Source: Macrostomum lignano
Lineage: Eukaryota
Length of the DNA stretch: 64,000 nucleotides
Assembly: GCA_002269645.1 (NCBI GenBank)
Contig: NIVC01001747.1
Location: forward strand, 1 to 64,000
Reading direction: 5' to 3'
Position numbers and translations under genes: made by a program. The number at the start of each line of letters is the position of its first letter. The first letter of the stretch is position 1. Positions 27,006-55,940 of this stretch are shown here, piece by piece. The notes under the pieces are model-generated. The model did no database searches. It was given only the letters and a program-made list of their open reading frames with translations, and was not told the DNA's origin.

Positions 27006-30707
<3,702 letters not shown>

Positions 30708-30807
30708 TTATTTATTTGGTTGCTGGTGGCAGTGTCATCATTGGGCTGGCCGGTAGGGTTCGCCCTCAGCGCCCCGCTCCTAGTTTGGCACGGGGTTAGG
30801 AACGGCA

Positions 30808-31784
<977 letters not shown>

Positions 31785-34570: not shown

Positions 34571-34815
34571 CAGGTAAGGTTCATAAAGTCTCTTCGAAAT
34601 TCTTTTACAATAAAATTGTAGAGCCACGAAGCTGCCTTTCTGCCCCCTTCTCTCCTTCCCCTCCCCGCTATATTGTGTCGCTATATTCTGTGGATGCTTG
34701 AGCCTTCGTCGGTCAGTCTCTAAAATTCTAGTGTGCGGGCATGCATTTTCGTTTTTGGGTCAGACAGATACTCGTAGCTGTTCAATCGTTGCCGCATTTT
34801 GCTTCCTCCTCTCTC

Positions 34816-37800
34816 TCTTAATACTAAAAGTGGTGCGTTGTTTGTCTGTGTGATACATATCTCCTCCTAGACGACTTGCAAGTCAGCGTCGAAACTTATA
34901 TGGGAAAACTGCAAATTTTCCGAGGATGGCAGTGGGCTATTTCAATTTTTTATTTTTGCATTTTAAGATCCCGAAAAAAGCAAAAAACTGCAATATTGAC
35001 CTTTGATAATCTTATTTGTCCACTCTTTCTGCTTGGAGCTGAAAACTTGCATGAATTTTGAGTGATTGCGCCATAACTTTCTCCTATCTCTGCAGTGTAT
35101 TTTCTCTCCAGTGGGGGGTGCTTGCGTTCTCAGTGGCGGCGTGTGTACACTTGGACCTTGGCGCACGGGCTGACTGTATAGACAATCGCGCAACGATATG
35201 TGCTCTGATTTTCAATTAGGCAGCCCGGTGTATTTTTTGCACACTGAAATTCAATGCATCAACTTGCGAGCCTTTTTAGCAGGCAGGTGAACGTACACTC
35301 GATACTTCAATGCTTTAAATCGGGACATTTCAAACGCAAACTGTTCTTCGAGTTCTAAACTTTAAAAGAATATACTTATATTGCTGGAAAGATCTCGCAA
35401 CACTGAGTTCGGGGATATAAGTTGTTTGTTTTAAATGTGAAAAGAAAAAACACAGCGATCGAAAACAACTTCCATACTTTTTACTTTCTGGAAATATTGT
35501 ACTCATTTTGGGGTTCAATGGGGGTTCGACCAACCCCCAACAGTTGGTGGGAGGGGGGGGCGGTTCAACTTTCAATTGCCACTGCGGAAGGGGGTCAGTC
35601 GCTGTGTATTGGAGGGTTGATTTAGATTGCGCAATCATTTCGTTAACTTTACCTGAGCCTGATACTGACTGAATGAGAAAACGGTTGCGCAATAAATTGA
35701 TTCAATTAATTCATATTTTTATCGGCGCCTTTCAACCCGCAGCTCTGTGCAGCTCTAACCCTAACCCTAACTAATGAATCCTGAAAGTTGAGTTCTCTTT
35801 GACGGAGAAAATTTCGATTGGGTCCAGTTTCGCGGAGAGGATTTCTGTTTCGCGGAGAGGATTTCGATGGTGTTCAGTTTCACGGAGAGGATTTTAATGG
35901 ATTTGGAGAACAGTTAGATGATGGGATTCAGCTGATGGAGATCAGGGAATGGAATTCCGGTGATGGGAGTTCTTCCCCTTTCTCCTCCAGAGGAGGAGTT
36001 GGCCTCGTTAATACTAAAACTGGTGCGTTGTTTGTCTGTGTGATACATATCTCCTCCTAGACGACTTGCAAGTCAGCGTCGAAACTTATATGGGAAAACT
36101 GCAAATTTTCCGAGGATGGCAGTGGGCTATTTCAATTTTTTATTTTTACATTTTAAGATCCCGAAAAAAGCAAAAAACTGCAATCTTGACCTTTGATAAT
36201 CTTATTTGTCCCCTCTTTCTGCTTGGAGCTAAAAATTTGCATGAATTTTGAGCGATTGCGCCATAACTTTCTCCTATCTCTGCAGTGTATTTTCTCTCCA
36301 GTGGGGGTGCTCGCGTTCTCAGTGGCGGCGTGTGTGCACTTGGACCTTGGCGCACGGGCTGACTGTATAGACAATTGCGCAACGATACGTGCTCTGATTT
36401 TCAATTAGGCAGCCCGGTGTATTTTTTGCACACTGAAATTCAATGCATCAACATGCGAGCCTTTTTAGCAGGCAGGTGAACGTACACTCGATACTTCAAT
36501 GCTTTAAATCGGGACATTTCAAACGCTAACTGTTGCTCGAGTTCTAAACTTTAAAAGAATAGACTTATATTGCTGGAAAGATCTTGCAACACTGAGTTCG
36601 GGGATATAAGTTGTTTGTTTTAAATGTGAAAAGAAAAAACACAGCGATCGAAAACAACTTCCATACTTTTTACTTTCTGGAAAGATTGTACTCATTTTGG
36701 GGTTCAATGGGGTTCGACCAACCCCCCAACAGTTGGTGGGAGGGGGGGCGGTTCAACTTTTAATTGCCACTGCGGAAGGGGTCAGTCGCTGTGTATTGGA
36801 GGGTTGATTTAGATTGCGCAATCATTTCGTGTGCACTTGGACCTTGGCGCACGGGCTGACTGTATAGACAATTGCAATTCACTGTTGCAGCCAGTGAACG
36901 TACACTCGATATTTCAATGCTTAAAATCAGAAAGTTTCAAACACTAACTGTTGCTCGAGTTTTGAACTTAGAGAGGAGAGACTTATATTGCTGGAAAGAT
37001 CTTGCTGCGATGAGTTCGGGGATATAAGTTTTTTGCTTTAAATATGAAAATTAAATTCACAGCATTCAAGAAAAGATTTTCATACTTTTAGCTTTCTGCA
37101 AAGATTGTTCTCATTTTGGAGTTCAATGGGGGTTCGACCGACCCCCCAATAGTTGGTGAGGGGGGGGTTCAATTTCTAGCTGCACTGCATATTGGAAGGG
37201 GGTCGGTTGCTGTGTATTTGAGGGTTGATTTAGATTGCGCAATCTTTTTGTTAACTTTAACTGAGGCTGATACTGACTGCCTGAGAAATAAGTTGCGCAG
37301 TTTAATTGGTTCAATGTTTTTACGGCGCCTTTCAACACGCAGCTGTGTGTAGCTCTAACCCTAACCCTAACCCTAACCAATGAATTCTGAGAGCTGGGCT
37401 GTTTGACGTAGAAATTTCGATTTAGTCCAGTTTCACGGAGAGGATTTCTATTTCGCGGAGTATATTTCGATGGTGTTCAGTTTCACGGAGAGGATTTCGA
37501 TAGTGTTCAGTTTCACGGAGACGATTTCTGTTGCGCGGAGAGGTGTTGGAAAATGGGATTCCGCTGATGGAGTTCAGGGAATGGAATTCCGCTGATTGGA
37601 GTTCTTCCCCTTTCTTCTCCGAAGGAGGAGTTGGCCTCGTCCTAATACTAAAGTTGGTGCGATGATTGTTTGTTTGTTTGTCTGTTTGTTTGTGTGTTGC
37701 ATAACTCCTCCTAGAATACTTGCAAGTCAGCGTTGAAACTTATATGGGTAAACTGCAAATTTTCCGGGGACTGCAGTGGGCTATTTCAATTTTTTATTTT

Positions 37801-40800
37801 CACATTTTAAGATCCCTAAAAAAGCAGAAAACTGCAATCTTGACCTTTGATAATCTTATTTGTCCCCTCTTTCTGCTCGGAGCTGATAAAATGCATCAAT
37901 TTTGATTGCTTGCGCCATAACTTTCTCCTATCTCGCCAGTGCATTTCTCTCCAGTTGGGGGATGGGGCGTTCTAAGTGGCTGCGTGTGTACAATTGGACC
38001 CTGGCTCAGTGGCGCACTGTAAAGATGATTGCGCAATGATTTGGCTACTGTTGAGTTGTTCTGCCTTTCAATATGAAGCCCTGTGTATTGTAGGACAGTG
38101 AAATTCATTGCATAACTTGCGAGTCGCTTTAACAGGCGGTGAGCGTACACTCGATATTTCAATGCTTTAAATCGGAAAGTTGTAAACGTTAACTGCTCAT
38201 CGAGTTCTAAACTTTAAGAGAAGAGACTTATATTGCCGGAAAGAGCTTGCAACACTGAGTTTGGAGGTATAAGTTGTTTGCTTTAAATATGAAAACAAAA
38301 AGGACAGCATTAAAAAACTATTTCCGAACTTTTAACTTTCTGCAAAGATTGCACTTAGTTTCGTGAGACGTAATAGATAAAGTTATGGGGAGGGTTCAAC
38401 TTCTTACTGCCACTGTGTATTGGAGGGTTGAATTAGATTGCGCAATCATTTTGTTAACTTTACCTGAGCCTGATACTGACTGAAAGAGAAATCAATTGCG
38501 CAATAAATTGATTCAATTAATTCAATATTCTTATCGGCGCCTTTCAACCCGCAGCTCTGTGCAGCTCTAACCCTAACCCTAACCACTGATGGCACTGAAC
38601 CCTGAGAGTTGAGTTCTTTTTGACGGAGAAAATTTCGATTGAGTCCAGTTTTACGGAGAGGATTTCGATGGTTTTCAGTTTCACGGAGAGGATTTCTGTT
38701 TCGCGGAGAGGAGTTTGATGGATTTGGAGATGTTTTGATGATGGGATTCGGGTCATGGGATTCAGCTAAGGGGTTTCAGGGAATGGAATTCCGGTGATGG
38801 GAGTTCTTCCCCTTTCTCCTCCATCGGAGGAGTTGGCCTCGTTAATACTAAAACTGGTGCGTTGTTTGTCTGTGTGATACATATCTCCTCCTAGACGACT
38901 TGCAAGTCAGCGTCGAAGCTTATATGGGAAAACTGCAAATTTTCCGAGGATGGCAGTGGGCTATTTCAATTTTTTATTTTTACATTTTAAGATCCCGAAA
39001 AAAGCAAAAAACTGCAATCTTGACCTTTGATAATCTTATTTGTCCCCTCTTTCTGCTTGGAGCTAAAAATTTGCATGAATTTTGAGCGATTGCGCCATAA
39101 CTTTCTCCTATCTCTGCAGTGTATTTTCTCTCCAGTGGGGGTGCTCGCGTTCTCAGTGGCGGCGTGTGTACACTTGGACCTTGGCGCACGGGCTGACTGT
39201 ATAGACAATTGCGCAACGATACGTGCTCTGATTTTCAATTAGGCAGCCCGGTGTATTTTTTGCACACTGAAATTCAATGCATCAACATGCGAGCCTTTTT
39301 AGCAGGCAGGTGAACGTACACTCGATACTTCAATGCCTTAAATCGGGACATTTCAAACGCTAACTGTTGCTCGAGTTCTAAACTTTAAAAGAATAGACTT
39401 ATATTGCTGGAAAGATCTTGCAACACTGAGTTCGGGGATATAAGTTGTTTGTTTTAAATGTGAAAAGAAAAAACACAGCGATCGAAAACAACTTCCATAC
39501 TTTTTACTTTCTGGAAAGATTGTACTCATTTTGGGGTTCAATGGGGTTCGACCAACCCCCAACAGTTGGTGGGAGGGGGGGCGGTTCAACTTTTAATTGC
39601 CACTGCGGAAGGGGGTCAGTCGCTGTGTATTGGAGGGTTGATTTAGATTGCGCAATCATTTCGTGTGCACTTGGACCTTGGCGCACGGGCTGACTGTATA
39701 GACAATTGCAATTCACTGTTGCAGCCAGTGAACGTACACTCGATATTTCAATGCTTAAAATCAGAAAGTTTCAAACACTAACTGTTGCTCGAGTTTTGAA
39801 CTTAGAGAGGAGAGACTTATATTGCTGGAAAGATCTTGCTGCGATGAGTTCGGGGATATAAGTTTTTTGCTTTAAATATGAAAATTAAATTCACAGCATT
39901 CAAGAAAAGATTTTCATACTTTTAGCTTTCTGCAAAGATTTTTCTCATTTTGGAGTTCAATGGGGGTTCGACCGACCCCCCAATAGTTGGTGAGGGGGGG
40001 TTCAATTTCTAGCTGCACTGCGTATTGGAAGGGGGGTCGGTTGCTGTGTATTTGAGGGTTGATTTAGATTGTGCAATCTTTTTGTTAACTTTAACTGAGG
40101 CTGATACTGACTGCCTGAGAAATAAGTTGCGCAATTTAATTGGTTCAATGTTTTTTCGGCGTCTTTCAACACGCAGCTGTGTGTAGCTCTAACCCTAACC
40201 CTAACCTTAACCAATGAATTCTGAGAGCTGGGCTGTTTGACGTAGAAATTTCGATTTAGTCCAGTTTCACGGAGAGGATTTCTATTTCGCGGAGAATATT
40301 TCGATGGTGTTCAGTTTCACGGAGAGGATTTCGATAGTGTTCAGTTTCACGGAGACGATTTCTGTTGCGCGGAGAGGTGTTGGAAAATGGGATTCCGCTG
40401 ATGGAGTTCAGGGAATGGAATTCCGCTGATTGGAGTTCTTCCCCTTTCTTCTCCGAAGGAGGAGTTGGCCTCGTCCTAATACTAAAGTTGGTGCGATGAT
40501 TGTTTGTTTGTTTGTCTGTTTGTTTGTGTGTTGCATAACTCCTCCTAGAATACTTGCAAGTCAGCGTTGAAACTTATATGGGTAAACTGCAAATTTTCCC
40601 GGGACTGCAGTGGGCTATTTCCATTTTTTATTTTCACATTTTAAGATCCCTAAAAAAGCAGAAAACTGATTTCCTAACCTTCTCTGGTCACTTTTTCTGC
40701 TCGGAGCCGAAAATTTGCATGAATTTTGAGCTATTGCGCCACAACTTTCTCCTATCTCTGTAGTGTATTTTCTCTCCAGTGGGGGGATGGTCGCGTTCTC

Positions 40801-41957
40801 AGTGGCGGCGTGTGTACACTTTTACCTTGGCGCACGGGCTGACTGACTGTATAGAAAATTGCGCAACGATATATGTTCTGATTTTCAATAGGCAGCCCTG
40901 TGTATTTATTTGTTGGATAGTGAATTCAATTTGAATAAACTTGCGAGCATCTTTAGCACGCACTGAACGTACACTCGATGGTTCAATGCTTTAAATCGGG
41001 AAATTTCAAACGCTAACTGTTCCTCGAGTTTTTTACTTTGAGAGGAGAGACTTATATTGCTGGAAAGATCTTTCAATGCTGAGTTCGGGAATATAAGTTG
41101 CTTGCTTTAAATCAAAAAAACTGAAAGCACTGCATTCTATAAAAGATTTTCATACTTTTAACTTTCTGCAAAGAGTGTACTCATTTTGGATTGAATGGGG
41201 GTTCGACCGACCCCCCAACAGTTGGGGGGGGGGTGGGTTCAATTTCTAACCGCCACTGCGTATTGCAAGGGGTCAGTCTCTGAGCATTGGAGGGTTGATT
41301 TAGTTTGCGTAATAATTTTAACTGAGACTGATACTGACTGACGGAGAAATGAATTGCGCCATCAATTTGTTTTATTATTTGTGCCAGCAGGCAGTAGTGA
41401 ACGTACACTCGATATTTCAATGCTTTAAAACGGGAACTTTCAAACGCTAAATTTTCTTTGAGTATTAAACTTTGAGAGGAGGGACTTATATTGCTGAAAA
41501 GAGCTTGCAACGCTGAGTTCGGGTATAAAAATTGTTTGCTTTAAAGTAGAAAAAATGAAGGCGGAGCAATGGAAAAAGTTTTTCATACTTTTTACTGTCG
41601 GCAAAGATTTTATTCATTTTAGGGGTTCATGGGGGTTCCGGGGGTTGGTTTCATCTTCTAACTGCCACTGAGTATTGGAGGGGGTCGGTCGCTGTGTATT
41701 GGAGGGTTGATTTACAATAGATTGCGCAATCTTTTTGCTAACTTTATACTGACTGACTGAGAAATCGGTTGCGCAATCAATTGATTCAATTAGTTCAATA
41801 TTTTATTGGCGCCTTTCAACACGCTGCTGTGTGTGGCTCTAACCCTAACCCTAACCAATGAATTCTGAGAGTTGAGTTTAGCTGATGGAGTTCAGGGAAT
41901 GGAATTCCAGTGATGGGAGTTCTTCCCATTTCTTCTCCGAAGGAGGAGTTGGCCTCG
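34816..41957 (+). mobile_element. Head-to-tail array of five non-autonomous Helitron-like units (1192, 1632, 1202, 1632, 1484 bp) with a 2834-bp higher-order repeat
   Basis: Units start T(C)(C/T)TAATACTAAA..TGGTGCG..GTTTG at 34816, 36008, 37640, 38842 and 40474. They end in a hairpin (CTCCTCC-AGA-GGAGGAG at 35982-35998) plus TTGGCCTCG. No TIRs, and no TSD seen. Internal ~420-bp subrepeat and (TAACCC)2-3. The tandem structure is certain; the Helitron assignment is inferred. Confidence 0.65.
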
Positions 41958-42300
41958 TATATACTAAAAATGAGTTGTCTGTATGTGGGTAGGTAGGTAG
42001 GTAGGTATGCGATAGATTTCAGAAAAATTGGCTCAACCGATTTTCTTCAAACTTGCACCATTTGATCAGAAATTTTCCTGGGACGGTACATGCATCTTGG
42101 CTAAGAAATTGCTCAATTTTAAAGGGATTAAATATTCGAAAAACATGCTTTTTTTGCAAAGGTCAAGCAAAATTTTCGACTTGAAATGCATTGTAAGAAT
42201 GCTAGAGAAAAACCTGACTGACTGAATTTCAATTCTGATAAAGATTGCATCACAACAAGTTGAAAACAGTGTCGAAGAAATGCACACACGACTTGATTTA
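41958..42300 (+). mobile_element. 5' part of a second Helitron-like non-autonomous family
   Basis: TATATACTAAAAATGAGTTGTCTGTATG, a (TAGG)n microsatellite, then GGCTCAACCGATTTTCTTCAAACTT. This layout is typical of Lep1-type Helitron heads. Confidence 0.4.
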
Positions 42301-42469
42301 AATTGCGTAACCAATATTGCTAACTTGAACTGAGACTGGTACTGGCTGACTGATAAATTGATTATGTCATAACTTTTTACTCTAATTGACTTGCTGTAAG
42401 AATTGAATTATAAGGGCCACAATTCATGTTCTCCAATTGAAAAAAGATAGCCTATATACGAACAGACTG

Positions 42470-43545
42470 TGTAGAGTGTTCTACCTTTCGTAAAAAAGAC
42501 ATAAAAGTGTTAACGTACTACTCACACATTTTATTCAGTAGTAAGTTGAAGAGCATGAATAAAGGTATGCTTTGAATTATAAGTATATTCTGACTAACCA
42601 ATAGAAAAAGAGAGACCTTGAGCATGCTAAATTTAGAAATCACCCAATCACGTGTAACCTGTACGTGTCGAACGCAAACCCCAGGAGAGATGCATCATTC
42701 AACCGTACGCACGTGACCCAAGCAAATGTAACTAAAAATAACTCGAATGCGATGACCAATCACGCGCTTTTACACTGAACCAATGGAGTAACTTTCTACC
42801 CTGCCAAGTTTGACAGCAGCCAAACCGTGACCTTTTTGACAGCTGAAGAGTTGGACCCACGTGACCTCATGGGGTCCATTTGCCTATAAATACAAGTGGT
42901 CCGGAACGGACCCGGAGCCACAATCTCCAAGGGAGAGAAGCTCCGAAGAGGAAGCTCTAGTGAAGCCTTCCTGAAGAAACTCGCGTCGTGGACGAGTTCT
43001 TGCGGTAAGCCTTACTCATTTGCGCCCGTTGGTTGAGACGTCTCGCTCAAGTCTATTGAGACTTGAGTTTATTTGAGTCTGTTGAGACTCTTGAGTCTGT
43101 TTAGACTCCACTGGTTGCAGTCTCCAGAAGGACTGCCCCTGATAGGTCTTAGAAGACTATCAGTGGTTTCCGGAGCTATACCTAGAGTGCAGAGAGGCAC
43201 TGCTAGAAGGAGTAGGCTTATATTAAAAACCGCAGTTTGGCGCAGGGATCCCCATTGTTAATTTGGAAGCTTCCGATTGGTCCGAACTACAGATACCGGC
43301 CGGCAAGAAGTCAAGAGGACAAAGGAGATAACGGACCAGATCAACTGTTACCAGGCGCCTAAACTTCCTGAAGGACAGGAAAGTTACTGATCGCGATACT
43401 ACGGACGAGGATTATTACGAGAGCTCTCATTTAAGGACTCAAAGGTAATTGAATACCTTCATTTGATTACTGGGTTGCCTAGCTACAGAGCTAGAAGTGA
43501 TTGTTCCTTGATTACAGTTGAGGACTGGTAATAAGGAACACATCA
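42470..43545 (+). repeat. 5' LTR (1076 bp)
   Basis: TGTAGAGTG...GGAACACATCA. By eye it is identical to the 3' LTR except a G4/G5 run at ~42871/52678. Confidence 0.97.
42595..42915 (+). promoter_or_regulatory. Putative LTR U3 promoter: CCAAT boxes, CACGTG E-boxes, TATA box
   Basis: Four CCAAT motifs (~42598, 42643, 42755, 42779), three CACGTG, TATAAATA at 42885-42892, followed by the hairpin GGTCCG-GAA-CGGACC. Confidence 0.5.
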
Positions 43546-44322
43546 ATTGGTGATCTCGCCCTTTCGGCACTACTCAAACTTTTGAGCAATAGCCCTGATC
43601 AAGCTATTGTTAAGTGGCGAAAGAGTGTCTTCATTAATTTGCGCGCACGTGTTAGAGTTAACATTTTGCAAGTCCGTACGTTTTGAAACTCGAGTAAAAT
43701 TTTGGTGTACAGGTTTGAGCACCTGTCAATTTTGAGTACAGTTTGAGCACGCGTGTTAAATTTTAGTTTTTAACGAGCTCGAGCAAGCGTAAACCTAAAA
43801 CAAAACCGAAAAACAACGTCCGGTACACTGAAAATAAACAAAAATAATAATTAATCAATACACACTAAAACAAAACCGAAATTAACTTCGTCGGTACACT
43901 GAAAACAAACCGAAAATCAAAGAATCGTCGACGCAAACAAACAAAAAATAACTGAAACATTTTGCCGGCACAAAAACTAAAACAAAACCGAAATTAATTG
44001 ACACTTCGTGGAGAGCGGAGTTAATTGACAAAAGAGAGAAAGTCAGGGAAGAGAAAAAAGTCTTTGCAAAGCAAGAAGACAAAGTCCACTTCAAGATACA
44101 CTTTGCGGGACGCCGCATAAGTGCGAAAACGGCAAGCGAACAGAACAAGTTCATTTGAGGACAACCAGTGGCAGCAAGCCGCAACTTCGAGGCCAGCGAA
44201 TAACAGATCGACACTACAAGGCAATTCGTTACAGTCGAGGTTATTCCGAGGCAAACACCACACTGGACGATCCGTTACAAATCGATCCAGATCTTGAACT
44301 ACCGTTCTATCCTATCAACAAC

Positions 44323-46113
44323 ATGGCGCGGCGCAATCCAACGGTACACAGAGACATCAAAGAAACGGTCGGTACTTTCTCGATGGAGAAAGATTTTAAC
44401 ACATTTGTCGACCATTTTGACCTGGTATGTAGGGAGTACAACCTACAAAATCCAGAGAAGGCACAGCTGCTGCCACCTCTTCTCCAAGGTACTGCGCGAG
44501 AAATTTACGGCAAGCTGGATGCGGCAACACAGCAAAATTATCCAGCACTAATCATTCAACTGCGCGCGCATTTCAACCGTTGCGGCACAAACAGATCAGT
44601 GCTGCTGCACAAATTACATAACAGAAGGATGCAGGCAACAGAATCCTTCCTCGCCTTTGTGGACGATATCCGCCAGATAATTAAGGCACTACATCAGCCA
44701 CCGCTGCAAGCTGCAGATCAACCGCCACTGGGAGCGGCAGAATTGGCCGCCAGAGAGAGACAGAGATTGATGGATCGCGAACAAAACCTAATCTTGCACG
44801 TAATAAACAACGCACAGCCGTCACTTCGGGATAGACTTTTGCGTGAAAACATCGAAACCGAAGAAGACCTTTTGCGGTGCGGAATGCAATGGGAAGCCAG
44901 TGCCCCATTAATGACGACAGGCAACAATGAAGTGCAGAAACTGACGCAGCAATTAAACAAATTAATGCAGCACCAGACAGCTGCTATCGCCGAACAAAAA
45001 AGACGAAATGAACAAGCCTCAGCCAGATGTTACTACTGCGGACAAGAAGGACATTATCAGATTAATTGTCCTCATTGGTCAACAAGGTACGACAAGCCGC
45101 GACAGATATTCAACAATCAAAAGCCGCAGAAACCATGGCAGCAATATCAAAATCGCCAACAACAAGGCATAAGACGCTTCGGAAATGATAGACGCTTCGG
45201 AAATAATGACCGCTCCGGAAATAATGGCCGCTTCGGAAACGACGGTCGCTTCAGAAATAATGGCTACAGGCCACGCAACGTCAGGTACACACAAAGACAG
45301 CCGACGCAAGCAATGCCACGATACGCGAATGCCATCACGTACACACCGGAAAATGAACAGCAAGAACAGCAAGTGTTCACAATTGACGACTTGGAAATGG
45401 ACTTCACAGTCCCGGAAGTTGACATCAGCTTGATCGAAAAGAAGACGACGCACGAGGACAACACTGACAACACAGAAGAGGCGAATGAAACCGAAATGAT
45501 CGAATTAAAAGAGACCACCGGAGACAGCAGAGAAAACAGGAAGAAAGTAAATCAACAGAAAAGGGAGGAGGCGGAGAGCGATACCGGCAACGAAGAAAAG
45601 ATGAAGACCGGCAGAGAAAACAACTATGAATCGACAACAGTGGATGACGACAAAACAAGCACGAAAGACAAAGAAGAAGGAATGCAGGAAGAACTGAAAG
45701 CGGAGAATCTAAGCTCCGACAACAATCAAGGCTACAAAATACAATGGAAAGATGAAGAAATGGGAAAAGAACAGATGAAAGAAAAGCCGAGTTCCGACAG
45801 CGACGAATGCTACGAGATCCGATACAAACGAAATGGTGAAGCCTATATTCAAACGGTCGACTACAAGACAGAGAAAAGATACCAAACGCAATGGAGTGAA
45901 ACAACGGAAACATCGGAAGAAGCCGCAGATGAAGATACTGAAATAACCAAAAAGCAAAGCGAATCAGAAGCCTTCCGCCGGAAACGCCAATGGAACAAGA
46001 GGAAGAATACGATGCGGACGCAGAAGATAACGAATGGCAGCCGCAGCCAATGCCAGCAAAGACAACGGCAACGTTCAGAAAATGGCGATTCTGGATATTC
46101 TGGATCATCATAA
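44323..46113 (+). CDS. gag: Gag: capsid-like domain, coiled coil, CCHC zinc knuckle, RFGN repeats, long acidic linker
   Basis: FSMEKDFNTFVDHFDLVC...LLQGTAREIY capsid-like motif and CYYCGQEGHYQINC (CX2CX4HX4C). Likely ATG at 44323; the frame is open from 44155. Confidence 0.9.
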   Translation: MARRNPTVHRDIKETVGTFSMEKDFNTFVDHFDLVCREYNLQNPEKAQLLPPLLQGTAREIYGKLDAATQQNYPALIIQLRAHFNRCGTNRSVLLHKLHNRRMQATESFLAFVDDIRQIIKALHQPPLQAADQPPLGAAELAARERQRLMDREQNLILHVINNAQPSLRDRLLRENIETEEDLLRCGMQWEASAPLMTTGNNEVQKLTQQLNKLMQHQTAAIAEQKRRNEQASARCYYCGQEGHYQINCPHWSTRYDKPRQIFNNQKPQKPWQQYQNRQQQGIRRFGNDRRFGNNDRSGNNGRFGNDGRFRNNGYRPRNVRYTQRQPTQAMPRYANAITYTPENEQQEQQVFTIDDLEMDFTVPEVDISLIEKKTTHEDNTDNTEEANETEMIELKETTGDSRENRKKVNQQKREEAESDTGNEEKMKTGRENNYESTTVDDDKTSTKDKEEGMQEELKAENLSSDNNQGYKIQWKDEEMGKEQMKEKPSSDSDECYEIRYKRNGEAYIQTVDYKTEKRYQTQWSETTETSEEAADEDTEITKKQSESEAFRRKRQWNKRKNTMRTQKITNGSRSQCQQRQRQRSENGDSGYSGSS

Positions 46114-49100
46114 TACTACTGACGGCAGTAGTCACCAAAGCAACAGCAATGGAGAAACCAATGATATGTCCAACGGATGCGCATATCCAACCGATGATCT
46201 ACAAGATACCAACCGACATCAAATGCAGCTACTTCAAGACAAATCAGACGAAGCCAAAGAAGATCACAATTGATCTCTACAAAGCTAACATCAAGAAGCA
46301 TCGACAACTTGGAATCGTGTGCTTCAGAGACAAGCACCTAGTCGAAAAAATATGGCGAGGACAATGGAACAGAATCCGATTCCGACAGCATGAGCTACAT
46401 GTGTCGCACGCTGACTGCCTACGATGGAACCAGACATTGTTCTCCAAAGATGGTGTACTAGAACCTGATGAAAAGGTCGGCAACGCACAACTCTTCCGAA
46501 CAAAGAATGTGGCAAACGGTCGATATGTCCACTATAATGAAAGATGGCCTGACTACACGGCACGCAACAGCTACCTAATCAGGAATATTCCGTTCTACTA
46601 CAATCCGTACGAGAAAATGGAATCACTGCAACTGCAACTAAGTGAATGCCGATACAGCGAAGGATGGTGCCCAACGCCGATATTGCGAAATGCAGAACTC
46701 TACAGCCTACCGCTGAGTCCAACGTATCATCCAGACTATCGATGGCAGATAGTGCACAGAGCCGATCCACACTACGAAGAGCCATCAAAGTCACGACAAT
46801 ATTTCTTCGCTTGGAAGGTTGAGACGGAAATCGACTGTCAACTACAAAAGTACCACACAGTGGAAGGAGGCCTACTGTCAAACACGTTTTTGGCAAAGTC
46901 AGGAGACTTGGCACTGACGTTTCAAAAGAAACCAGTCGAGCAAAAACTGAAATGCAAGGATACAGACAAGACACTATTCATCTCGGAACAAGAGATACCA
47001 GTCTACGTAAAAGAAGACGACAAACAAACCTTTCTGGCGATCATCAACGGAACGTATCAACAGCAGGAACAACAGAACAGACGACGACGAGACATCGAAC
47101 GTCCCAAACTGGTGTCAAACCGACTACTGTCAGCAAAGATAACGGCTTTGGATCATAATCTACACAACCAGTTAAACCACTTGCATCGAACACTGGTCCA
47201 GCTAACTTGCAAAATGCACGCAATCAACTTAAATTATGCCAGACAAAACTACTATGTCAACCCTACGATGACTTTTCGTAAAATCACCGGAATGACGAAC
47301 GTTTTGGCAGTTCCAATATACGAGCATCTGTTGATATACAAGTGCACGCCGATACAGCACTTTAACATCTTGCCGTCGAACACGTCAACAACCTGCTATG
47401 ACAAGCCAAGGATTGAAGCGTTCTACGAAGGAAAACGAATTCAAGGATTCTTGGACACGGTACACAACATCATCGTTGGCACCGCAATACCGAGACCTTG
47501 CACCACGGCAGCAAACTACTATCAACTGGACAATGCACTGCACGTCATCAAAACAACTGGAACGACAGCAAACATCACAGAACCGGAAGTAATCGTCGAC
47601 GAAAACTACGACATGGAGGATTTGAAGATCCGATTCAACAGAACGAAGTATACGCCATTCGCCGATATCCAACTTGACGAGATAACACCAGGATGGACGA
47701 TCAACGACTTCTTGCAAGCGTTCATCACCCAACGCACGATGATTCACCAGCTGTTCACAAGAAAGGACAAAGGAACCGGGACAGGAAGATTTCCCGTCCT
47801 TGTTTCAATGGACAGCGCCATCAAATCATTTTGGACAAACAGCTTCTGGGAGCTGCTCAATGGAAGAGGCAGTCTCTATCAAGGATTCATCTTCTACGGT
47901 GCTTGCATTGTGTGGATTGTCACGGCAATCTTCGTCATTTCGTCGATCGTACGGTGCTTCAGTCAAACTTGTCCAAGAGCTAAGAAGACAGTGAATGCCA
48001 TAATGCAAAGAACGACAACGGAAGGCGACAACAGTTTAGAACTAACAGAAACTGCACATCGTGAGGTTCAAGGGCAACCGACACTAGCAACGCGGCTATA
48101 TCCATCGATTCCGACAACACCAACGGCACCAAGAATACAACCACCCAACTATCAAGCAGAACAGCAAGACCCAAAATGGCCAGAGAACTACGTATGTACT
48201 CTACACGCCGAAATTGACAAAGCAATGGCTCAAGTTATAATCAACAATCTACCATGTCGAGCGCTACTGGACTCCGGCAGCTCCATTACAGTTATATCAA
48301 AACAACTGTGCAACAAGCTACGACTTGCTCTACGGCCAGCAACAATCGCAGTTGCAGGAGCAGGAGGACATTCGCTAAACATTCTGGGAAAAGCCGACAT
48401 TGACTTAAGAATCGCTAATAAACAGTTGACAGTTCCAACGTACGTCATCGACAGACTCCCAAACCAGGACGTTATTGTTGGCATCGACACGTTCAAGCAG
48501 CTTAGACTACCATTGACCTTCGACTTCAATAAGCAAACGTTTAAGATCGACTCGGTAGAACAACCATTGATCAACCAGATCCGAGTACTACCAAAAGTAA
48601 CATTGCAACAAGATGTCATCATCCAACCGGAGAGCGCCTGCTGGATAAAGGCAAAGGCAACTAACGCAACGGAGGAAGCAATGATATTCGACCCAAACAG
48701 AAGAGTCACGGCTAAACACCAAATTATGATGCCTACGGCACTAGTGCTGGTGGCAAAAGATAAGCAGCTGCCAGTACAAATCTTTAACCCAAACGCGGAA
48801 ATGGTTCATCTACGACAAGGAATGTGCATCGGTCATCTTAATACTCAAGCATCAGTTATGCTGATTGAGCACGCGACTCCACGACTAACAGAAGAAGAAT
48901 TTCAAAAGAAAATCAACTTGGACGACAGCCCGATCACGGAACAACAAAAGAAGAAAGTTCGACAACTGTTGTGGAAGTACAACGAAGCCTTCTGCCATCA
49001 TGATTACGACATCGGACGCGCTAAAGACATTAAACAAGAAATCAAGCTTCTACCACACACGGAACCAATTCAGTGCAAGCCGTACCCGATTGCCAAGCAT

Positions 49101-51734
49101 CTGCAACAACACTTTGACGAAATTATCGATAAAATGCTAAAACACGGCATCATCAGCAAAGCCATTTCAGCATACTCATCACCATGTCTCTTGGTACAAA
49201 AGAAGGAGACTAACGAAAGACGACTCGTATGTGACTTCAGACTGCTGAACAAGTACATACCGACGGATCAGCAAAGCCTACCGAAGATCTCCGAACTACT
49301 AGCAAAGCTCAACACGGCAAAATTGTTCACAGTGTTCGACCTACGTCATGGATTTTGGCAAATTGAAATCGAGAAAGAGTCACGACAGTACACGGCTTTC
49401 AAAACCTACAATGGACAAGTATACGAGTACAATCGATCGCCGATGGGACTCAGCAACAGCCCAGCAACGATGAGCCGACTAACAGCATACATGCTTGCAG
49501 GATGCACGAACCTGTTGCACTATGTTGACGACATCTTAGCCTACGGAGAAGACTTCGAACGACTCTATGAAGCGACGGAGAATGCCCTCGCGCTTATCCA
49601 ACGACAAGGACTTAAGCTACAACCAACTAAATGCAAATTCTTCCGAGACAACGTGCGTTACCTGGGACATCAGGTGACAGCCAAAGGAATTTCACCGGAC
49701 CCAGACAACGTGGATAAAGTGAAAAAGTTTCCTACGCCAACTAGCAAAACGAAGGTCCAATCATTTCTTGGACTTGCGCAATACTTCCGAAAGTTCTTAC
49801 CCAACTTCGCGAAGACAGCAAAGCCGCTGTACGACCTGCTCAAGTTCGACAAATGGAAGCAGGAGAATTGGACACAAAAGCAACAAGAAAGTTTTGACGA
49901 AATCAAACGACAGCTGACATCAGACGCACTGCTACAGCATCCGGACTTCGACAAACCCTTCATCATCGAGACAGACGCCTCAGGAACGGGACTCGGAGCA
50001 GTCCTACTACAGGAAACTGAAGACAAAAAGGAACGACCTATAGCCTACGTCAGTCGAGCACTTAAACCGAATGAGACAAAATGGTCAGCTACGGAACGAG
50101 AACTACTAGGAGTTCTGTTCGCCCTACGACAGTTTCACTACTACATCTATGGATCTCCATTACAGACGATAGTACGCACAGATCACGCACCGCTGACCTA
50201 CGTCGTAACTACAAAAGGACAAACAAACAACCGACTCATCAGGATGACACTCAAGATCCAGGACTACAACTACAAACTCGTCTACAAACCAGGAATTACT
50301 AACAAGGCTGCGGACGCTCTGTCAAGAACCTACGAAGTCAACGCCATTCATCCAATTCCTAACATCAAGGAGTTGATGGATGAAACCGAGAACGACTACT
50401 TCTACCAAGCAATTAAAAACAACGACAAGGACATCAAGCTCAGCCCCGTGGAACGAAAATTCCTGCGCAAGCAGCGACAACATTTAACAATCAACAAGTC
50501 ACGACTCTACTGGATGAGTGACAACAAACCTAAAATCTACATGCCATATTCGTTTAGGCAGGCAATTCTCAACGAACTACACGACAATCCACTCGCTGGA
50601 CACCTGTCGGCAGCCAAAACCATTGCAAGAGTGGAGCAATACTACTTTTGGCCAAGCATGTACGGCGACATCAAGCAGTATTGCAACAACTGCCACTCAT
50701 GCGCAGCATCAAAGACGGGACGACGACAGAAGCCACAGCTACAGTCCATTCCGAAGTCAACAACTATGGACTGTCTCAGCATCGACATCACCGGACCACT
50801 ACCACCGAGCTGTCTCCAGGGCATCGCCTACACCTACATCCTAACCGCCTTGGATATTTTCTCGAAGTTTGCTATCGCTATACCGATCCCGGACATCACA
50901 GCTCAAACGGTGGCAATGTGTTTCTTCAACGACATTATTTGCAAGTACGGCTCACCGAAGAATCTCACGTCGGACAATGGATCACAATTTGTATCTCAAC
51001 TGTTTCAGCAAGTTGTGAAGATACTCAACATCACGCAGATCTACACGTCGACCTACAATCCGAAAGCAAACATGGTTGAACGGTTTCATCGTAATCTGCA
51101 TGAGATGATCACGCACTTCGCGCATCAACAGCCGGAAGACTGGATCATCTACCTACAATCCGTAACAATGGCCTACAACAGCGCTATTCATAGATCGACG
51201 GACAATACGCCATTCTTTCTAATGTTTGGACGAGACTTCCAACCACCAAACCTATTGGCACAGCAACTACTACCATCGCAATATGTGGAAGTCCCGACGT
51301 CCATTCAAAAGTTCGTCACGCAACTACACCTCGCATGGAAAGTAGCCAAGCACAACATCGACAATCAGGTGGCTCTAACCACCGGCACCGACACGAGATC
51401 GACAACTCTGACAGCCGGCGACATCGTCTACCTGCACTATCCGCCGCAACAAACGCACAAACACGCACAGAAATACAAAGGACCATATCGAGTGGTCCAA
51501 CTAACGTCACTGACAACGGCACGCCTGGCCAATGTGCAAGATCCTCATCAGCACCAATTCTACGTGCACATTCATCGACTAAAGAAGATCAACACTGACA
51601 CGACAACGTTTTTACCGTCACTAGACAACGCTGATCGCACGCGTTCGGCGAACCGCCACATCGCAACAAAACACGAGGAGACACAAACATCAACCGAGAA
51701 ACAGCAACACGGCTACAATCTGCGACCTCGTTAA
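45990..51734 (+). CDS. 1914-aa Env-Pol polyprotein: signal peptide, glycoprotein ectodomain, TM, late-domain tail, protease, RT, RNase H, integrase
   Basis: Signal peptide FWIFWIIIILLTAVVTKATA (~46089-46148). Furin site RRRR/D (47079-47090). TM FIFYGACIVWIVTAIFVISSIV (47886-47951). PR LLDSGS (48270). RT YVDD (49521). RNase H ETDASG..ELLG..TDH..ADALSR. IN H-H-C-C plus D(IDITG)-D(SDNG)-E(VERF). No stops. Confidence 0.95.
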   Translation: MEQEEEYDADAEDNEWQPQPMPAKTTATFRKWRFWIFWIIIILLTAVVTKATAMEKPMICPTDAHIQPMIYKIPTDIKCSYFKTNQTKPKKITIDLYKANIKKHRQLGIVCFRDKHLVEKIWRGQWNRIRFRQHELHVSHADCLRWNQTLFSKDGVLEPDEKVGNAQLFRTKNVANGRYVHYNERWPDYTARNSYLIRNIPFYYNPYEKMESLQLQLSECRYSEGWCPTPILRNAELYSLPLSPTYHPDYRWQIVHRADPHYEEPSKSRQYFFAWKVETEIDCQLQKYHTVEGGLLSNTFLAKSGDLALTFQKKPVEQKLKCKDTDKTLFISEQEIPVYVKEDDKQTFLAIINGTYQQQEQQNRRRRDIERPKLVSNRLLSAKITALDHNLHNQLNHLHRTLVQLTCKMHAINLNYARQNYYVNPTMTFRKITGMTNVLAVPIYEHLLIYKCTPIQHFNILPSNTSTTCYDKPRIEAFYEGKRIQGFLDTVHNIIVGTAIPRPCTTAANYYQLDNALHVIKTTGTTANITEPEVIVDENYDMEDLKIRFNRTKYTPFADIQLDEITPGWTINDFLQAFITQRTMIHQLFTRKDKGTGTGRFPVLVSMDSAIKSFWTNSFWELLNGRGSLYQGFIFYGACIVWIVTAIFVISSIVRCFSQTCPRAKKTVNAIMQRTTTEGDNSLELTETAHREVQGQPTLATRLYPSIPTTPTAPRIQPPNYQAEQQDPKWPENYVCTLHAEIDKAMAQVIINNLPCRALLDSGSSITVISKQLCNKLRLALRPATIAVAGAGGHSLNILGKADIDLRIANKQLTVPTYVIDRLPNQDVIVGIDTFKQLRLPLTFDFNKQTFKIDSVEQPLINQIRVLPKVTLQQDVIIQPESACWIKAKATNATEEAMIFDPNRRVTAKHQIMMPTALVLVAKDKQLPVQIFNPNAEMVHLRQGMCIGHLNTQASVMLIEHATPRLTEEEFQKKINLDDSPITEQQKKKVRQLLWKYNEAFCHHDYDIGRAKDIKQEIKLLPHTEPIQCKPYPIAKHLQQHFDEIIDKMLKHGIISKAISAYSSPCLLVQKKETNERRLVCDFRLLNKYIPTDQQSLPKISELLAKLNTAKLFTVFDLRHGFWQIEIEKESRQYTAFKTYNGQVYEYNRSPMGLSNSPATMSRLTAYMLAGCTNLLHYVDDILAYGEDFERLYEATENALALIQRQGLKLQPTKCKFFRDNVRYLGHQVTAKGISPDPDNVDKVKKFPTPTSKTKVQSFLGLAQYFRKFLPNFAKTAKPLYDLLKFDKWKQENWTQKQQESFDEIKRQLTSDALLQHPDFDKPFIIETDASGTGLGAVLLQETEDKKERPIAYVSRALKPNETKWSATERELLGVLFALRQFHYYIYGSPLQTIVRTDHAPLTYVVTTKGQTNNRLIRMTLKIQDYNYKLVYKPGITNKAADALSRTYEVNAIHPIPNIKELMDETENDYFYQAIKNNDKDIKLSPVERKFLRKQRQHLTINKSRLYWMSDNKPKIYMPYSFRQAILNELHDNPLAGHLSAAKTIARVEQYYFWPSMYGDIKQYCNNCHSCAASKTGRRQKPQLQSIPKSTTMDCLSIDITGPLPPSCLQGIAYTYILTALDIFSKFAIAIPIPDITAQTVAMCFFNDIICKYGSPKNLTSDNGSQFVSQLFQQVVKILNITQIYTSTYNPKANMVERFHRNLHEMITHFAHQQPEDWIIYLQSVTMAYNSAIHRSTDNTPFFLMFGRDFQPPNLLAQQLLPSQYVEVPTSIQKFVTQLHLAWKVAKHNIDNQVALTTGTDTRSTTLTAGDIVYLHYPPQQTHKHAQKYKGPYRVVQLTSLTTARLANVQDPHQHQFYVHIHRLKKINTDTTTFLPSLDNADRTRSANRHIATKHEETQTSTEKQQHGYNLRPR

Positions 51735-51845
51735 GTTGCGAAAACAACCCGTGTAGAGACCGGGTCAGAATAGCTCTACAGCTTCGCAAGCTTGTCGTAA
51801 GAGGCGACTAATCTGAGCGACTTCAAACTTCAAGCGACGACGACA

Positions 51846-52058
51846 ATGGGCAACGCACTGTCCAAACAGGCGCCCCAACTACAGCAACTCTACGAATGCC
51901 CAATATGTTTAACTGATGACTTGGCTGTCAAGCCACCAATTATTTGTGAAAACAGACATCGCATATGCGGACAATATTTAAGCGACTCACATTATATTCA
52001 GCTCTGGCAGAATTGCCCGATAGGTAGAAGTAGCTTTCGGCAGTGCGCCTATTGTTAG
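51846..52058 (+). CDS. Small accessory ORF (70 aa): MGNALS myristoylation motif + RING-like zinc finger
   Basis: Strong Kozak context acaATGG. CPIC-x13-CENRHRIC-GQY...CPIGR resembles a Siah/TRAF-type C3HC4 RING, with ligands 6 and 8 replaced by Tyr (TAT) and Gly (GGT), each one base from TGT. Confidence 0.6.
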   Translation: MGNALSKQAPQLQQLYECPICLTDDLAVKPPIICENRHRICGQYLSDSHYIQLWQNCPIGRSSFRQCAYC

Positions 52059-52276
52059 TCTTGGCGCACATGTCAATACTGTAACCAAAAACATTTTATT
52101 TGCATGCGTATACTTACCTTTAAATAACTTTTATAACCAACGCTCTTAACTACCCATTACTAAATACCTGTAACACTTGTGACAAATGATTATTATAAAG
52201 ACATGCTTGAACTTTTTATGCGTTTCAATCCTCTATTTAAAACTCGGGACGAGTTTTTTGTAAACATGGGAGATTT

Positions 52277-53353
52277 TGTAGAGTGTTCTACCTTTCGTAA
52301 AAAAGACATAAAAGTGTTAACGTACTACTCACACATTTTATTCAGTAGTAAGTTGAAGAGCATGAATAAAGGTATGCTTTGAATTATAAGTATATTCTGA
52401 CTAACCAATAGAAAAAGAGAGACCTTGAGCATGCTAAATTTAGAAATCACCCAATCACGTGTAACCTGTACGTGTCGAACGCAAACCCCAGGAGAGATGC
52501 ATCATTCAACCGTACGCACGTGACCCAAGCAAATGTAACTAAAAATAACTCGAATGCGATGACCAATCACGCGCTTTTACACTGAACCAATGGAGTAACT
52601 TTCTACCCTGCCAAGTTTGACAGCAGCCAAACCGTGACCTTTTTGACAGCTGAAGAGTTGGACCCACGTGACCTCATGGGGGTCCATTTGCCTATAAATA
52701 CAAGTGGTCCGGAACGGACCCGGAGCCACAATCTCCAAGGGAGAGAAGCTCCGAAGAGGAAGCTCTAGTGAAGCCTTCCTGAAGAAACTCGCGTCGTGGA
52801 CGAGTTCTTGCGGTAAGCCTTACTCATTTGCGCCCGTTGGTTGAGACGTCTCGCTCAAGTCTATTGAGACTTGAGTTTATTTGAGTCTGTTGAGACTCTT
52901 GAGTCTGTTTAGACTCCACTGGTTGCAGTCTCCAGAAGGACTGCCCCTGATAGGTCTTAGAAGACTATCAGTGGTTTCCGGAGCTATACCTAGAGTGCAG
53001 AGAGGCACTGCTAGAAGGAGTAGGCTTATATTAAAAACCGCAGTTTGGCGCAGGGATCCCCATTGTTAATTTGGAAGCTTCCGATTGGTCCGAACTACAG
53101 ATACCGGCCGGCAAGAAGTCAAGAGGACAAAGGAGATAACGGACCAGATCAACTGTTACCAGGCGCCTAAACTTCCTGAAGGACAGGAAAGTTACTGATC
53201 GCGATACTACGGACGAGGATTATTACGAGAGCTCTCATTTAAGGACTCAAAGGTAATTGAATACCTTCATTTGATTACTGGGTTGCCTAGCTACAGAGCT
53301 AGAAGTGATTGTTCCTTGATTACAGTTGAGGACTGGTAATAAGGAACACATCA
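52277..53353 (+). repeat. 3' LTR (1077 bp)
   Basis: Matches the 5' LTR and is preceded by a short purine run GGGAGA (PPT-like). Confidence 0.97.
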
Positions 53354-53395
53354 ACTGGACTGCCAACGTAGCGACCTGGGTTCGAATCTTAGTAG
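53354..53395 (+). other. Degenerate tRNA/SINE-like remnant split by the LTR insertion (other part at ~42446-42469)
   Basis: The reconstituted site GATAGCCTATATACGAACAGACTGGACTGCCAACGTAGCGACCTGGGTTCGAATCTTAG has a B-box/T-arm (CTGGG-TTCGAAT-CTTAG). Confidence 0.4.
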
Positions 53396-53449
53396 TGAAA
53401 AATATTTTTTTTATTAAAACACCTTAAATACACGAAACTGCTAAACATA

Positions 53450-55940
53450 AAAAAGCACAATGTCAAACATAAAAGAGGCACCATGTCAAACATTACATGG
53501 GCACCATGTAAAACATATACGTGACTCTTTGTCAAACATTAAAGAGCCACCACGTCGAACATTAAAGAGCCACCATGTCGAACATTAAAGAGCCGCCATT
53601 TCGAACATAAAAGAGCCACCATTTCGAACATTAAAGAGCCACCATTTTAAACATTAAAGAGCCACCATGTCAAACATTTAGGAGCCACCATGTCAAACAT
53701 TTAAGAGCCACCATGTCGAAAATAAAGAGCCACCATTTCGAACATTAAAGAGCCACCATTTCGAACATTAAAGAGCTACCATTTTGAACATTAAAGAGCC
53801 ACCATTTTAAACATTAAAGAGCCACCATGTCAAACATTTAGGAGCCACCATGTCAAACATTAAAGAGCCACTTTGTCGAACATTAAAGAGCCACCATTTC
53901 GAACATTAAAGAGCCACCATTTCGAACATTAAAGAGCTACCATTTTGAACATTAAAGAGCCACTATTTTGAACATAAAAAGAGCCACCATTTCGAACATA
54001 AAAGAGCCACCATGTCAAACATAAAAAAGCCACCATGTCTAACATTAAAGAGCCACCATGTCAAACATTAAAGAGCCACCATGTCGAACATTAAAGAGCC
54101 TTTATGTCTAACATTAAAGAGCCACCATGTCAAACCTAAAAGAGCCACCATGTCAAACATAAATCTGGCATGATGTCAAACATTAAAGTGCTACCATATC
54201 GAACATTAAAGAGCCACCATGTCTAAAAGTAAAGAGCCACCATGTCGAACATTAAAGGGCCACCATGTAGAACATTAAAGAGCCGTACCATGTCAGACAT
54301 TAAAAAGCCACCGTATCAAACATAAAAGAGTTACCATGTAGAACAAAAAAGAGCCACCATGTAAAACATTTAGGAGCCACCATGTCAAACGTATATGTGA
54401 CTTTATGACAAACATTAAAAAGCCACAATTTAAAACATTAAAGAGCCACTATGTCGAACATTAAAGAGCCACCATGTCTAACATAAAAGAGCTATACCAT
54501 GAAGAAAATTAAAGAGCCACCATGTCTAAAAGTAAAGAGCCACCATGTCGAACATTAAAGAGCCACCATTTCGAACATTAAAGAGCCACCATGTCAAAGA
54601 TTTAAGAGCCTCTATGTCAAACATTCAAAAGCCGCATTGTCAAACATTAAAGAGCCATTATGTCGTACATTAAAGAGCCACCATTTCGAATATTAAAGAG
54701 CCACCATGTCGAACATAAAAGAGCCACTATTTTGAACATAAAAAGAGCCACCATTTCGAACATAAAAGAGCCACCATGTCAAAAATAAAAGAACCACCAT
54801 GTCAAACATAAAAGAGCTAACATGTCAAACATAAAGAGCCACCATGTCAAACATTTAAGAACCACCATGTCAAACATATATGTGACTTTGTGTCAAACAT
54901 TAAAGAGCCACCATTTCGAACATTAAAGAGCCACCATTTCGAACATTAAAGAGCCACCATGTCAAACATGAAAGAGCTATAACATGAAGAATATTAAAGA
55001 GCCACCATGTCGAACGTAAAAGAGCCGCCATGTAAAATATTAAAGAGCTACCATGTTAAACATAAAAGAGCCACCATGTAAAACATTAAAGAGCAACCAT
55101 GTGAAACATTAAAGAGCCACCATGTTAAACATTTAAGAGCCTTCGTGTCAAACCTAGAAGAGCCACCATGTCGAACATAACAGAGCTACCATGTCAAACA
55201 TTAAAGAGCCACCATGTCAAACATTCAAAAGCCACATTGTCAAACATTAAAGAGCCATTATGTCGTACATCAAAGAGCCACCATGTCGAACATTAAAGAG
55301 CCACCATGTCGAACATAAAAGAGCCACTATTTTGAACATTAAAGAGCCACCATTTCGAACATTAAAGAGCCATCATGTCAAGCATGAAAGAGCTATAACA
55401 TGAAGAATATTAAAGAGCCACCATTTCGAACATAAAAGAGCCGCCATGTAAAATATTAAAGAGCATCATGTGAAACATTAAAGAGCCACCATGTTAAACA
55501 TTTAAAAGCCTTCGTGTCAAACAGTAAAGAGCCACCATGTCGAACATTAAAGCGCCACCATGTCGAACGTTAAAGAGCCACCATGTCAAACATTAAAGAG
55601 CCACATTGTCAAACAGTAAAGAGCCACCATGTCGAACATTAAAGAGCCACCATGTCGAACGTTAAAGAGCCACCATGTCGAACATTAACGAGCCACGATG
55701 TCAAACATAAAAGAGCTACCAAGTTAGACATAGAAGAGCCACCATGTGAAACATATATGTGACTCCATGTCAAAAATTAAAGAGCCACCGTTTCTAACAT
55801 TAAGGAGCCACCATGACAAACATAAAACTGGCACAAACATAAATTGTCAAACATTAAAGAGCCACCATGTAGAACATTAAAGAGTCACCATGCCAAACAT
55901 TAAAAAGCCACCAATTAAAACATAAAATAGCCACCATTTC
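53450..55940. repeat. 23-bp satellite (GAACATTAAAGAGCCACCATGTC)n
   Basis: About 100 diverged tandem copies over 2.5 kb. Confidence 0.96.

Follow-up and report, generated by a model that had tools for sequence, protein, structure and literature searches.

How does a Ty3/gypsy retroelement express an envelope gene (env) that lies between gag and the protease and is fused in frame to pol? This question is raised by a stretch of 64,000 nucleotides (nt) from the flatworm Macrostomum lignano (GenBank assembly GCA_002269645.1, contig NIVC01001747.1, positions 1 to 64,000 of the forward strand), which will be referred to as the window. A complete Ty3/gypsy element was found at 42,470-53,353 on the plus strand, as are all features of the element described below. 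The element was inserted recently and belongs to a Macrostomum errantivirus family with the GAG-ENV-POL layout that is already known; the product of this family is very likely a single Gag-TM1-Env-TM2-Pol polyprotein (TM, transmembrane segment) that starts at the Gag ATG.

The distal part of this polyprotein is encoded by an open reading frame (ORF) of 1,914 amino acids (aa) at 45,990-51,734, which contains no stop and which the ORF list, Pfam and the sibling copies identify as Env followed by protease (PR), reverse transcriptase (RT), RNase H (RNH) and integrase (IN). Hydropathy places TM1, a putative internal signal sequence, at 46,095-46,151 (aa 36-54, KD19 peak 2.19), preceded by basic residues and followed by an A-x-A type site, at which cleavage may occur, as judged from the sequence. 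TM2, the membrane anchor of Env (47,883-47,939, aa 632-650, KD19 peak 2.42), is the only TM downstream. Pfam matches define an aspartic protease with a DSG motif (48,222-48,515, aa 745-842), RT with YVDD (aa 1070-1229) and RNH (aa 1294-1426), together at 49,197-50,267, and IN with H2C2, catalytic core and GPY (50,544-51,734, Pfam match aa 1519-1691), which follows RNH as in the Ty3/gypsy order. An earlier note on this DNA had described such an uninterrupted frame with six N-glycosylation sequons, an RRRR site, a single downstream TM and PR-RT-RNH-IN, and this description was confirmed in the sequence and by Pfam. The gag frame (44,323-46,113, 596 aa; ORF list and Pfam) carries a zf-CCHC domain, with the CCHC knuckle at 45,028-45,075 (Pfam), a capsid-like region, short basic repeats and an acidic spacer. 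It differs in frame from Env-Pol, which lies in the -1 frame, and the two overlap by 172 nt (45,942-46,113). Four 18-nt repeats encoding R-F-G-N-N/D units were observed 3' of the zinc knuckle (window 45,175-45,262), and the long acidic spacer, with about 30% D+E in the siblings, lies between these repeats and TM1.

The env sequence has at least 64 matches in the genome of the window. Twenty of the 63 other matches were analyzed, the 18 top-scoring ones and two of a divergent subfamily; since they were largely chosen by score, this sample is biased toward intact env, which weighs against taking the following counts at face value. In most siblings the gag frame continues into env, and the Gag knuckle, TM1, env, TM2 and PR lie within one ORF in 16 of the 20 copies. 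In nine copies the frame stays open all the way from the Gag ATG to the stop codon of pol (about 2,440-2,500 aa), and a single Gag-Env-Pol ORF is also present in the divergent subfamily, which is 64% identical in Env. Since 16 siblings read from Gag to PR in one ORF, a single polyprotein is the expected family product, and the hydrophobic segment that the earlier note had taken for an N-terminal signal peptide is internal, located after Gag; its counterpart is likewise internal in distant homologues. The Met at 45,990 is present in subfamilies A and B but absent at the equivalent position of the divergent subfamily. The proposed location of env between gag and protease, in frame with pol, was upheld, as env is in frame with PR in 19 of the 20 fetched copies. 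The ratio of nonsynonymous to synonymous substitution rates (dN/dS) is 0.01 for the capsid region of Gag and 0.09 and 0.06 for Env against two siblings, demonstrating purifying selection. The fusion of env to pol is therefore not a chance event, given the 64 genomic matches, the 19 in-frame copies and the low dN/dS of env. The best database matches are M. lignano proteins of 97-99% identity. A second M. lignano family is represented by a 2,852-aa protein of Gag-Env-Pol order; four copies of this family lie in the genome as open frames of 2,859-2,866 aa, and its relatives have open frames of 2,778-2,818 aa. Further Macrostomum Gag-Env-Pol families (G000:C270:3204-11759 and others) of 2,778-2,866 aa were noticed as RT sisters of the window family.

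The ectodomain between the two TMs (46,146-47,864) was assigned to the class III fusogens, resembling glycoprotein B (gB) and nyamivirus G, by Pfam, profile, AlphaFold2 (AF2) and Foldseek analyses. It contains six sequons (NQT85, NQT147, NGT353, NTS464, NIT528 and NRT550) and a furin-type site RRRR/D, with RRRR at aa 364-367 (47,079-47,090), which is present in 20 of 20 sibling copies. The ectodomain had been called Cys-rich; with 12 Cys over about 573 aa (2%) the term is too strong, but the Cys are conserved, all 12 being retained in the subfamily that is 64% identical in Env, and the furin site and sequons are likewise conserved between subfamilies. A profile built from 26 homologues matched herpesvirus gB (E 3e-8); 21 of the 22 rows in this search were named glycoprotein B in full and the remaining one was a gB fragment. 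The AF2 monomer model (predicted local distance difference test, pLDDT, 72.9; predicted template-modelling score, pTM, 0.57) retrieved herpes simplex virus (HSV) gB with E 1.7e-20 and Nyavirus G with E 1.8e-25 in Foldseek. The ESM Atlas gave a value of 0.90 for the Pfam family Monjiviricetes_fusion (PF24664), which we take as a lead only, and word-index protein searches with env returned Macrostomum-like sequences only. Speaking against the assignment, template-modelling scores were low (0.23-0.33 to solved gB, 0.23-0.47 overall), which together with the pTM of 0.57 indicates a weak global fit, so that the fold match depends on local domains and E-values; the low scores of the model are probably due to different domain arrangements. 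Since the profile and fold searches returned only class III viral fusogens, Env is a conserved viral fusogen of this class and not a host gene, which agrees with the envelope glycoprotein proposed in the earlier note. Herpesvirus gB, Nyamiviridae G and chuvirus G share the fold and a conserved domain III/IV region with the window Env, but the latter is only 10-14% identical to them and is embedded between two TMs of a retroelement polyprotein.

These features suggest a mechanism that resembles the structural polyproteins of flaviviruses and alphaviruses. The whole polyprotein would be translated from the Gag ATG, with Gag in the cytosol followed by the acidic spacer and TM1, the Env ectodomain in the lumen of the endoplasmic reticulum, and TM2, the tail and PR-RT-RNH-IN again in the cytosol. 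By this analogy TM1 would start translocation, signal peptidase would free the N-terminus of Env and leave Gag attached to the membrane, and TM2 would act as stop-transfer sequence; furin would then cut Env, and the element's own protease would release Pol. Gag, Env and Pol would thus arise on the same membrane in a 1:1:1 ratio, with no need for splicing or frameshifting. A luminal ectodomain with a cytosolic Pol on the Env tail, as previously proposed, fits the hydropathy profile and the modelled fold, on which the predicted topology is based. Finally, motifs in the Env tail may drive budding via the endosomal sorting complex required for transport (ESCRT), although we have lower confidence in budding and infectivity than in the polyprotein itself.

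Retroviral late domains are located in Gag, where PTAP (TSG101-type), LYPx[I/L] (ALIX-type) and PPxY (NEDD4-type) motifs recruit ESCRT. A motif search detected LYPSI, PTAP and PPNY in the cytosolic tail of the window Env (48,096-48,152), all inside 19 residues of the linker between TM2 and the protease. PTAP is found in 22, PPxY in 21 and [LMI]YPx[IL] in all of 23 genome copies, and P[TS]AP together with YPx[IL] occurs in all three Macrostomum families surveyed. In a survey of 18 Env tails, P[TS]AP was present in five against 0.21 expected from shuffles and PPxY in three against 0.53; of 19 Gag-side sequences one had P[TS]AP. By analogy with retroviruses, the motifs of the tail probably serve budding by recruiting ESCRT. 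Several counts weaken this interpretation: YPxL was not clearly enriched (five of 18 tails against 2.4 expected), PTAP was also found in one of 16 env-less Pol proteins, which is a small control, and three of the five PTAP-positive tails belong to Macrostomum families, with 13 of the 18 tails lacking the motif. Since three of the five positives are related and most tails are without it, the P[TS]AP of the Env tail is, on this sequence survey, a lineage trait plus two outside cases. The main text of Chary and Hayashi (eLife 2026, PMC13524379), as far as accessible, does not mention late domains, ESCRT or PTAP, and clustered late-domain-like motifs in an Env tail appear not to have been described in the literature that we searched.

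A second feature was seen in the siblings 3' of pol (for example L029:8573-9241 and L039:8600-9701): a double-RING ORF of 222 aa that opens with MG-x3-S, with additional RING ORFs behind it. This cassette is tandemly arranged with a variable number of ORFs and has 151 genomic matches. The RING ORF is under purifying selection (dN/dS 0.12 and 0.23), and the divergent subfamily, though without the MG start, has retained the RINGs at 42% identity. By comparison with the siblings, the window copy contains a truncated ORF of 70 aa with MG-x3-S start and a degenerate RING (51,846-52,058). This 70-codon form is common to about 20 copies, and as these have been amplified, an intact RING ORF is dispensable for transposition. 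The ESM Atlas value of 0.91 for viral RING clusters is again a lead only. RING genes are not mentioned in the accessible main text of Chary and Hayashi (PMC13524379), nor in the accessible parts of a rotifer extra-ORF paper (PMC5408684), and those of an M. lignano LTR paper (PMC12801592) mention neither env nor RING. RING genes behind Env-Pol thus appear to be undescribed in the literature covered, to which subscription journals, Repbase and GyDB did not belong. We tentatively propose, while regarding it as somewhat more doubtful than probable, that budding has been rewired in the Macrostomum GAG-ENV-POL elements: ESCRT late domains would be placed on the tail of a class III Env within the single polyprotein and not on Gag, and an expandable double-RING cassette of putative E3 ligases, the first with a myristoylation-type start, would provide viral accessory proteins.

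The strongest alternative differs from the best explanation in its last step only. Env could be conserved for cell-to-cell transfer or for assembly at intracellular membranes, and no free infectious particles would be formed. The nearest env-bearing RT relatives of the window element come from the same host, and the amplification of about 20 copies whose RING cassette is truncated indicates that some accessory functions are dispensable; both observations agree with such a restricted life style. However, the furin site, the 12 Cys and the sequons have been kept between subfamilies, and the late-domain-like motifs point to budding. We therefore consider this alternative unlikely, though it deserves to be taken seriously.

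The window copy itself deviates from the family. In gag it shares 94-100% identity with B-type copies and 72-87% with one A-type copy, to which its env is 98-99% identical. Comparison with the siblings locates the junction of B-type gag and A-type env at 45,967-45,993; the subfamily switch coincides there with a frame break private to this copy, near 45,980, and the gag/env junction has only one match in the whole genome. No slippery heptamer of the type X XXY YYZ was found in the 172-nt overlap. The window copy is a recombinant subfamily mosaic, and because of this private frame break without a slippery site and the truncated accessory ORF it is not intact as assembled, contrary to the earlier note. 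Twelve broken copies contain 16 frame-break events, which are scattered (five between nucleocapsid (NC) and TM1, ten in pol and one in gag), with the same offset in 14 of the 16. This scatter and the homopolymer indel between the long terminal repeats (LTRs) described below suggest that part of the breaks, perhaps including that of the window copy, are assembly errors. Either the window copy makes soluble Gag only and depends on its siblings, or its break is an assembly error. Copies in general were observed to be subfamily mosaics, with several switch points in gag, env and pol (window 44,323-51,734), which suggests that RNAs packaged together often serve as alternating templates.

Taken at face value, the sequence of the window copy would favour a separate Gag ORF and an Env-Pol that would use the ATG at 45,990 as its start and carry a signal peptide at its N-terminus, expressed by re-initiation, an internal promoter or splicing. 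Subfamilies A and B retain the start Met, NC-TM1 breaks occur also in four of the 20 siblings and in L019, and env RNA of the Oikopleura Tor elements is derived from internal promoters according to the accessible part of PMC4402516. The five breaks between NC and TM1 count against the single polyprotein, as Gag and Env may be separated by another route; an enrichment of breaks at this position was nevertheless rejected (p 0.09, in a sample skewed toward intact env). On the other hand, 16 of 20 siblings read through, the break positions differ among copies and the window junction is unique in the genome, the divergent subfamily lacks the Met, and selection acts on the 5' capsid region and Env as a single frame, so that a separate start is improbable. 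Still less probable is a programmed -1 frameshift setting the ratio of Gag to Env-Pol, which would agree with the -1 position of Env-Pol and its 172-nt overlap with gag, but the overlap lacks an X XXY YYZ heptamer, the junction occurs in this copy only and the siblings do without a shift. Capture of a host membrane gene unrelated to fusogens can practically be dismissed, for although a single-sequence search of the PDB with env gave no match and the Pfam match to PF24664 (E 3e-5) is below the cut-off, profile and fold searches yielded only class III viral fusogens and the homologues reside within retroelement polyproteins. The single polyprotein thus remains the preferred product of the family.

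The boundaries of the element are clearly defined. Repeat comparison yielded a 5' LTR of 1,076 nt with TG...CA ends (42,470-43,545) and a 3' LTR of 1,077 nt (52,277-53,353), and the 4-bp target-site duplication ACTG is seen on both sides (42,466-42,469 and 53,354-53,357). Two bases inside from the 5' LTR begins a primer-binding site (PBS; 43,548-43,561), which by tRNA comparison is complementary to the 3' end of the host tRNA-Val(AAC) and is conserved in 21 of 21 copies; a short purine-rich stretch adjoining the 3' LTR (52,264-52,276) is a weak candidate for the polypurine tract. The two LTRs differ by a single indel within a G run and by no substitution, and a joint omitting the entire element with four shared letters was present in three of four sequencing runs. 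The insertion is very young. Contigs from the four runs, none of which is recorded as RNA, cover all 30 bins; GT..AG ends were found in none of the 15 joints listed of 52, a count that is uninformative on expression or splicing as the runs are not recorded as RNA. Rfam gave no match, and neither did ARAGORN on the window. Paired TG...CA LTRs, target-site duplication, PBS and the Pol order PR-RT-RNH-IN place the element in Ty3/gypsy (Metaviridae), and its Pol domains are of gypsy type (PF17917, PF17919 and PF17921, with rve located after RNH), as are the Pol proteins that are its RT neighbours in the database. The element is inserted within repeated sequence carrying a tRNA-like T-loop motif (window 42,300-42,469 and 53,354-53,400), a repeat that is common without the element in the sequencing runs and that is adjoined by a 23-nt satellite at 53,390-55,550.

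Beyond M. lignano, env matched 57 representative database proteins. Eighteen of the 26 env-positive proteins of at least 1,000 aa have an upstream CCHC (one being a gene-model artefact), and seven of the 26 contain CCHC-env-PR-RT in one chain, including Globodera rostochiensis and the second M. lignano family. A FastTree phylogeny of RT-RNH was calculated from 128 rows, excluding P0001 and RT stretches outside 300-560 aa and containing no named reference elements. The two Macrostomum families group together (support 97), apart from the nematode row, and the nearest env-bearing RT relatives of the window element come from the same host. The env label requires four changes on this tree, at least two of them forced by strong branches, in agreement with the non-monophyly already published. 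Unusual env-bearing homologues were also noticed: P0059 (2,974 aa) has an Ig-like domain (PF13927) listed, P0007 a NADAR domain before env and P0030 protease domains on either side of env, and P0052, a Bel/Pao element, carries an env of this type downstream of IN.

The gag-env-pol order proposed in the earlier note is real but not new. According to the accessible part of Chary and Hayashi (PMC13524379), gB-type env in GAG-ENV-POL order occurs in errantiviruses of Nematoda, Bryozoa and Platyhelminthes, some Env ectodomains are "flanked by two transmembrane domains", and Sacco et al. 2022 are credited for the nematode elements. Correspondingly, the window element has an internal env, a gB-like class III ectodomain and, by hydropathy, a flanking signal/TM and a TM. 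Supplementary file 1 of that paper lists Platyhelminthes_Rhabditophora_Mlig_errantivirus_2 (ENV_HSV, 16 copies), which corresponds to the window family in host, HSV/gB-type env, GAG-ENV-POL order and multicopy state. The reverse complement given for its PBS is identical to that of the window element, although this PBS is common to the divergent subfamily too and thus does not fix the subfamily; its distance from PBS to 3' LTR is 8,862 nt, compared to 8,543-8,893 nt in window family copies. Its env was not found among the Platyhelminthes rows of Supplementary file 2 as far as accessible, and the match is one of description and not of alignment. With this qualification, the window family very probably is Mlig_errantivirus_2 and hence already catalogued. 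Differences remain, as the accessible table contains only one M. lignano element whereas the genome has several such families, and the window copy is a frame-broken recombinant. A single ORF is not mentioned in the accessible main text, though figure supplements may show a fused ORF.

The nematode endogenous retroviruses (NERVs) of Sacco et al. 2022 (J Gen Virol 103:1739), as cited in the accessible part of PMC13524379, likewise have env before pol in a Ty3/gypsy element. The Globodera protein P0048 shows the arrangement CCHC-TM-env-TM-PR-RT in one chain, but its Env is only 25% identical to the window Env over 261 columns, it has no PTAP in the tail region examined, its RT clade is separate and its host is a nematode and not a flatworm. 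In NERVs a nyamivirus-like env is reported to lie within an uninterrupted gag-env-pro-pol ORF; in the window family the ORF is continuous at the family level (16 of 20 copies) and broken in the window copy as assembled. The window family thus works like a NERV without being a member of the NERVs. Drosophila errantiviruses (gypsy, ZAM) and vertebrate retroviruses share LTR, PBS, gag, PR-RT-RNH-IN and env with the window family, but their env is a separate 3' ORF expressed from spliced RNA and encodes an F-type or class I protein, in contrast to the internal class III env with late-domain-like motifs on its tail described here. The Oikopleura Tor elements were also considered as a precedent for env before pol, which the accessible part of PMC4402516 does not support.

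Several other features were observed in the window. An intronless ankyrin-repeat ORF of 874 aa overlaps a 477-aa ORF without Pfam match at 16,763-20,789 (+), the two perhaps being one broken gene, and a 296-aa ORF at 26,070-26,960 (+) contains a Mab-21/cGAS-like C-terminal domain (PF20266, E 1.3e-7). Fragmented ORFs at 27,000-31,800 (-) with a weak RT match at 28,910-29,794 probably represent a decayed non-LTR element. Units of 1.2-1.7 kb, which include a 418-nt sub-repeat, form a degenerate tandem array over 34,700-41,600, and fragments of a THAP domain and a P-element transposase helix-turn-helix at 61,574-63,870 (-) indicate a P-like DNA transposon.

As env between gag and pol has been published, this arrangement itself is no discovery, and the remaining interest lies in the single-polyprotein mechanism, the late-domain-like motifs of the Env tail and the RING cassette. 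The motif cluster and the cassette yield concrete predictions, which we did not find in print. M. lignano is a flatworm ready for transgenesis that harbors young multicopy elements, so that polyprotein processing and the budding of a gB-type errantivirus could be observed in the animal. If budding is rewired as proposed, these elements would represent a complete design of an enveloped retro-transcribing virus that needs neither splicing nor frameshifting.

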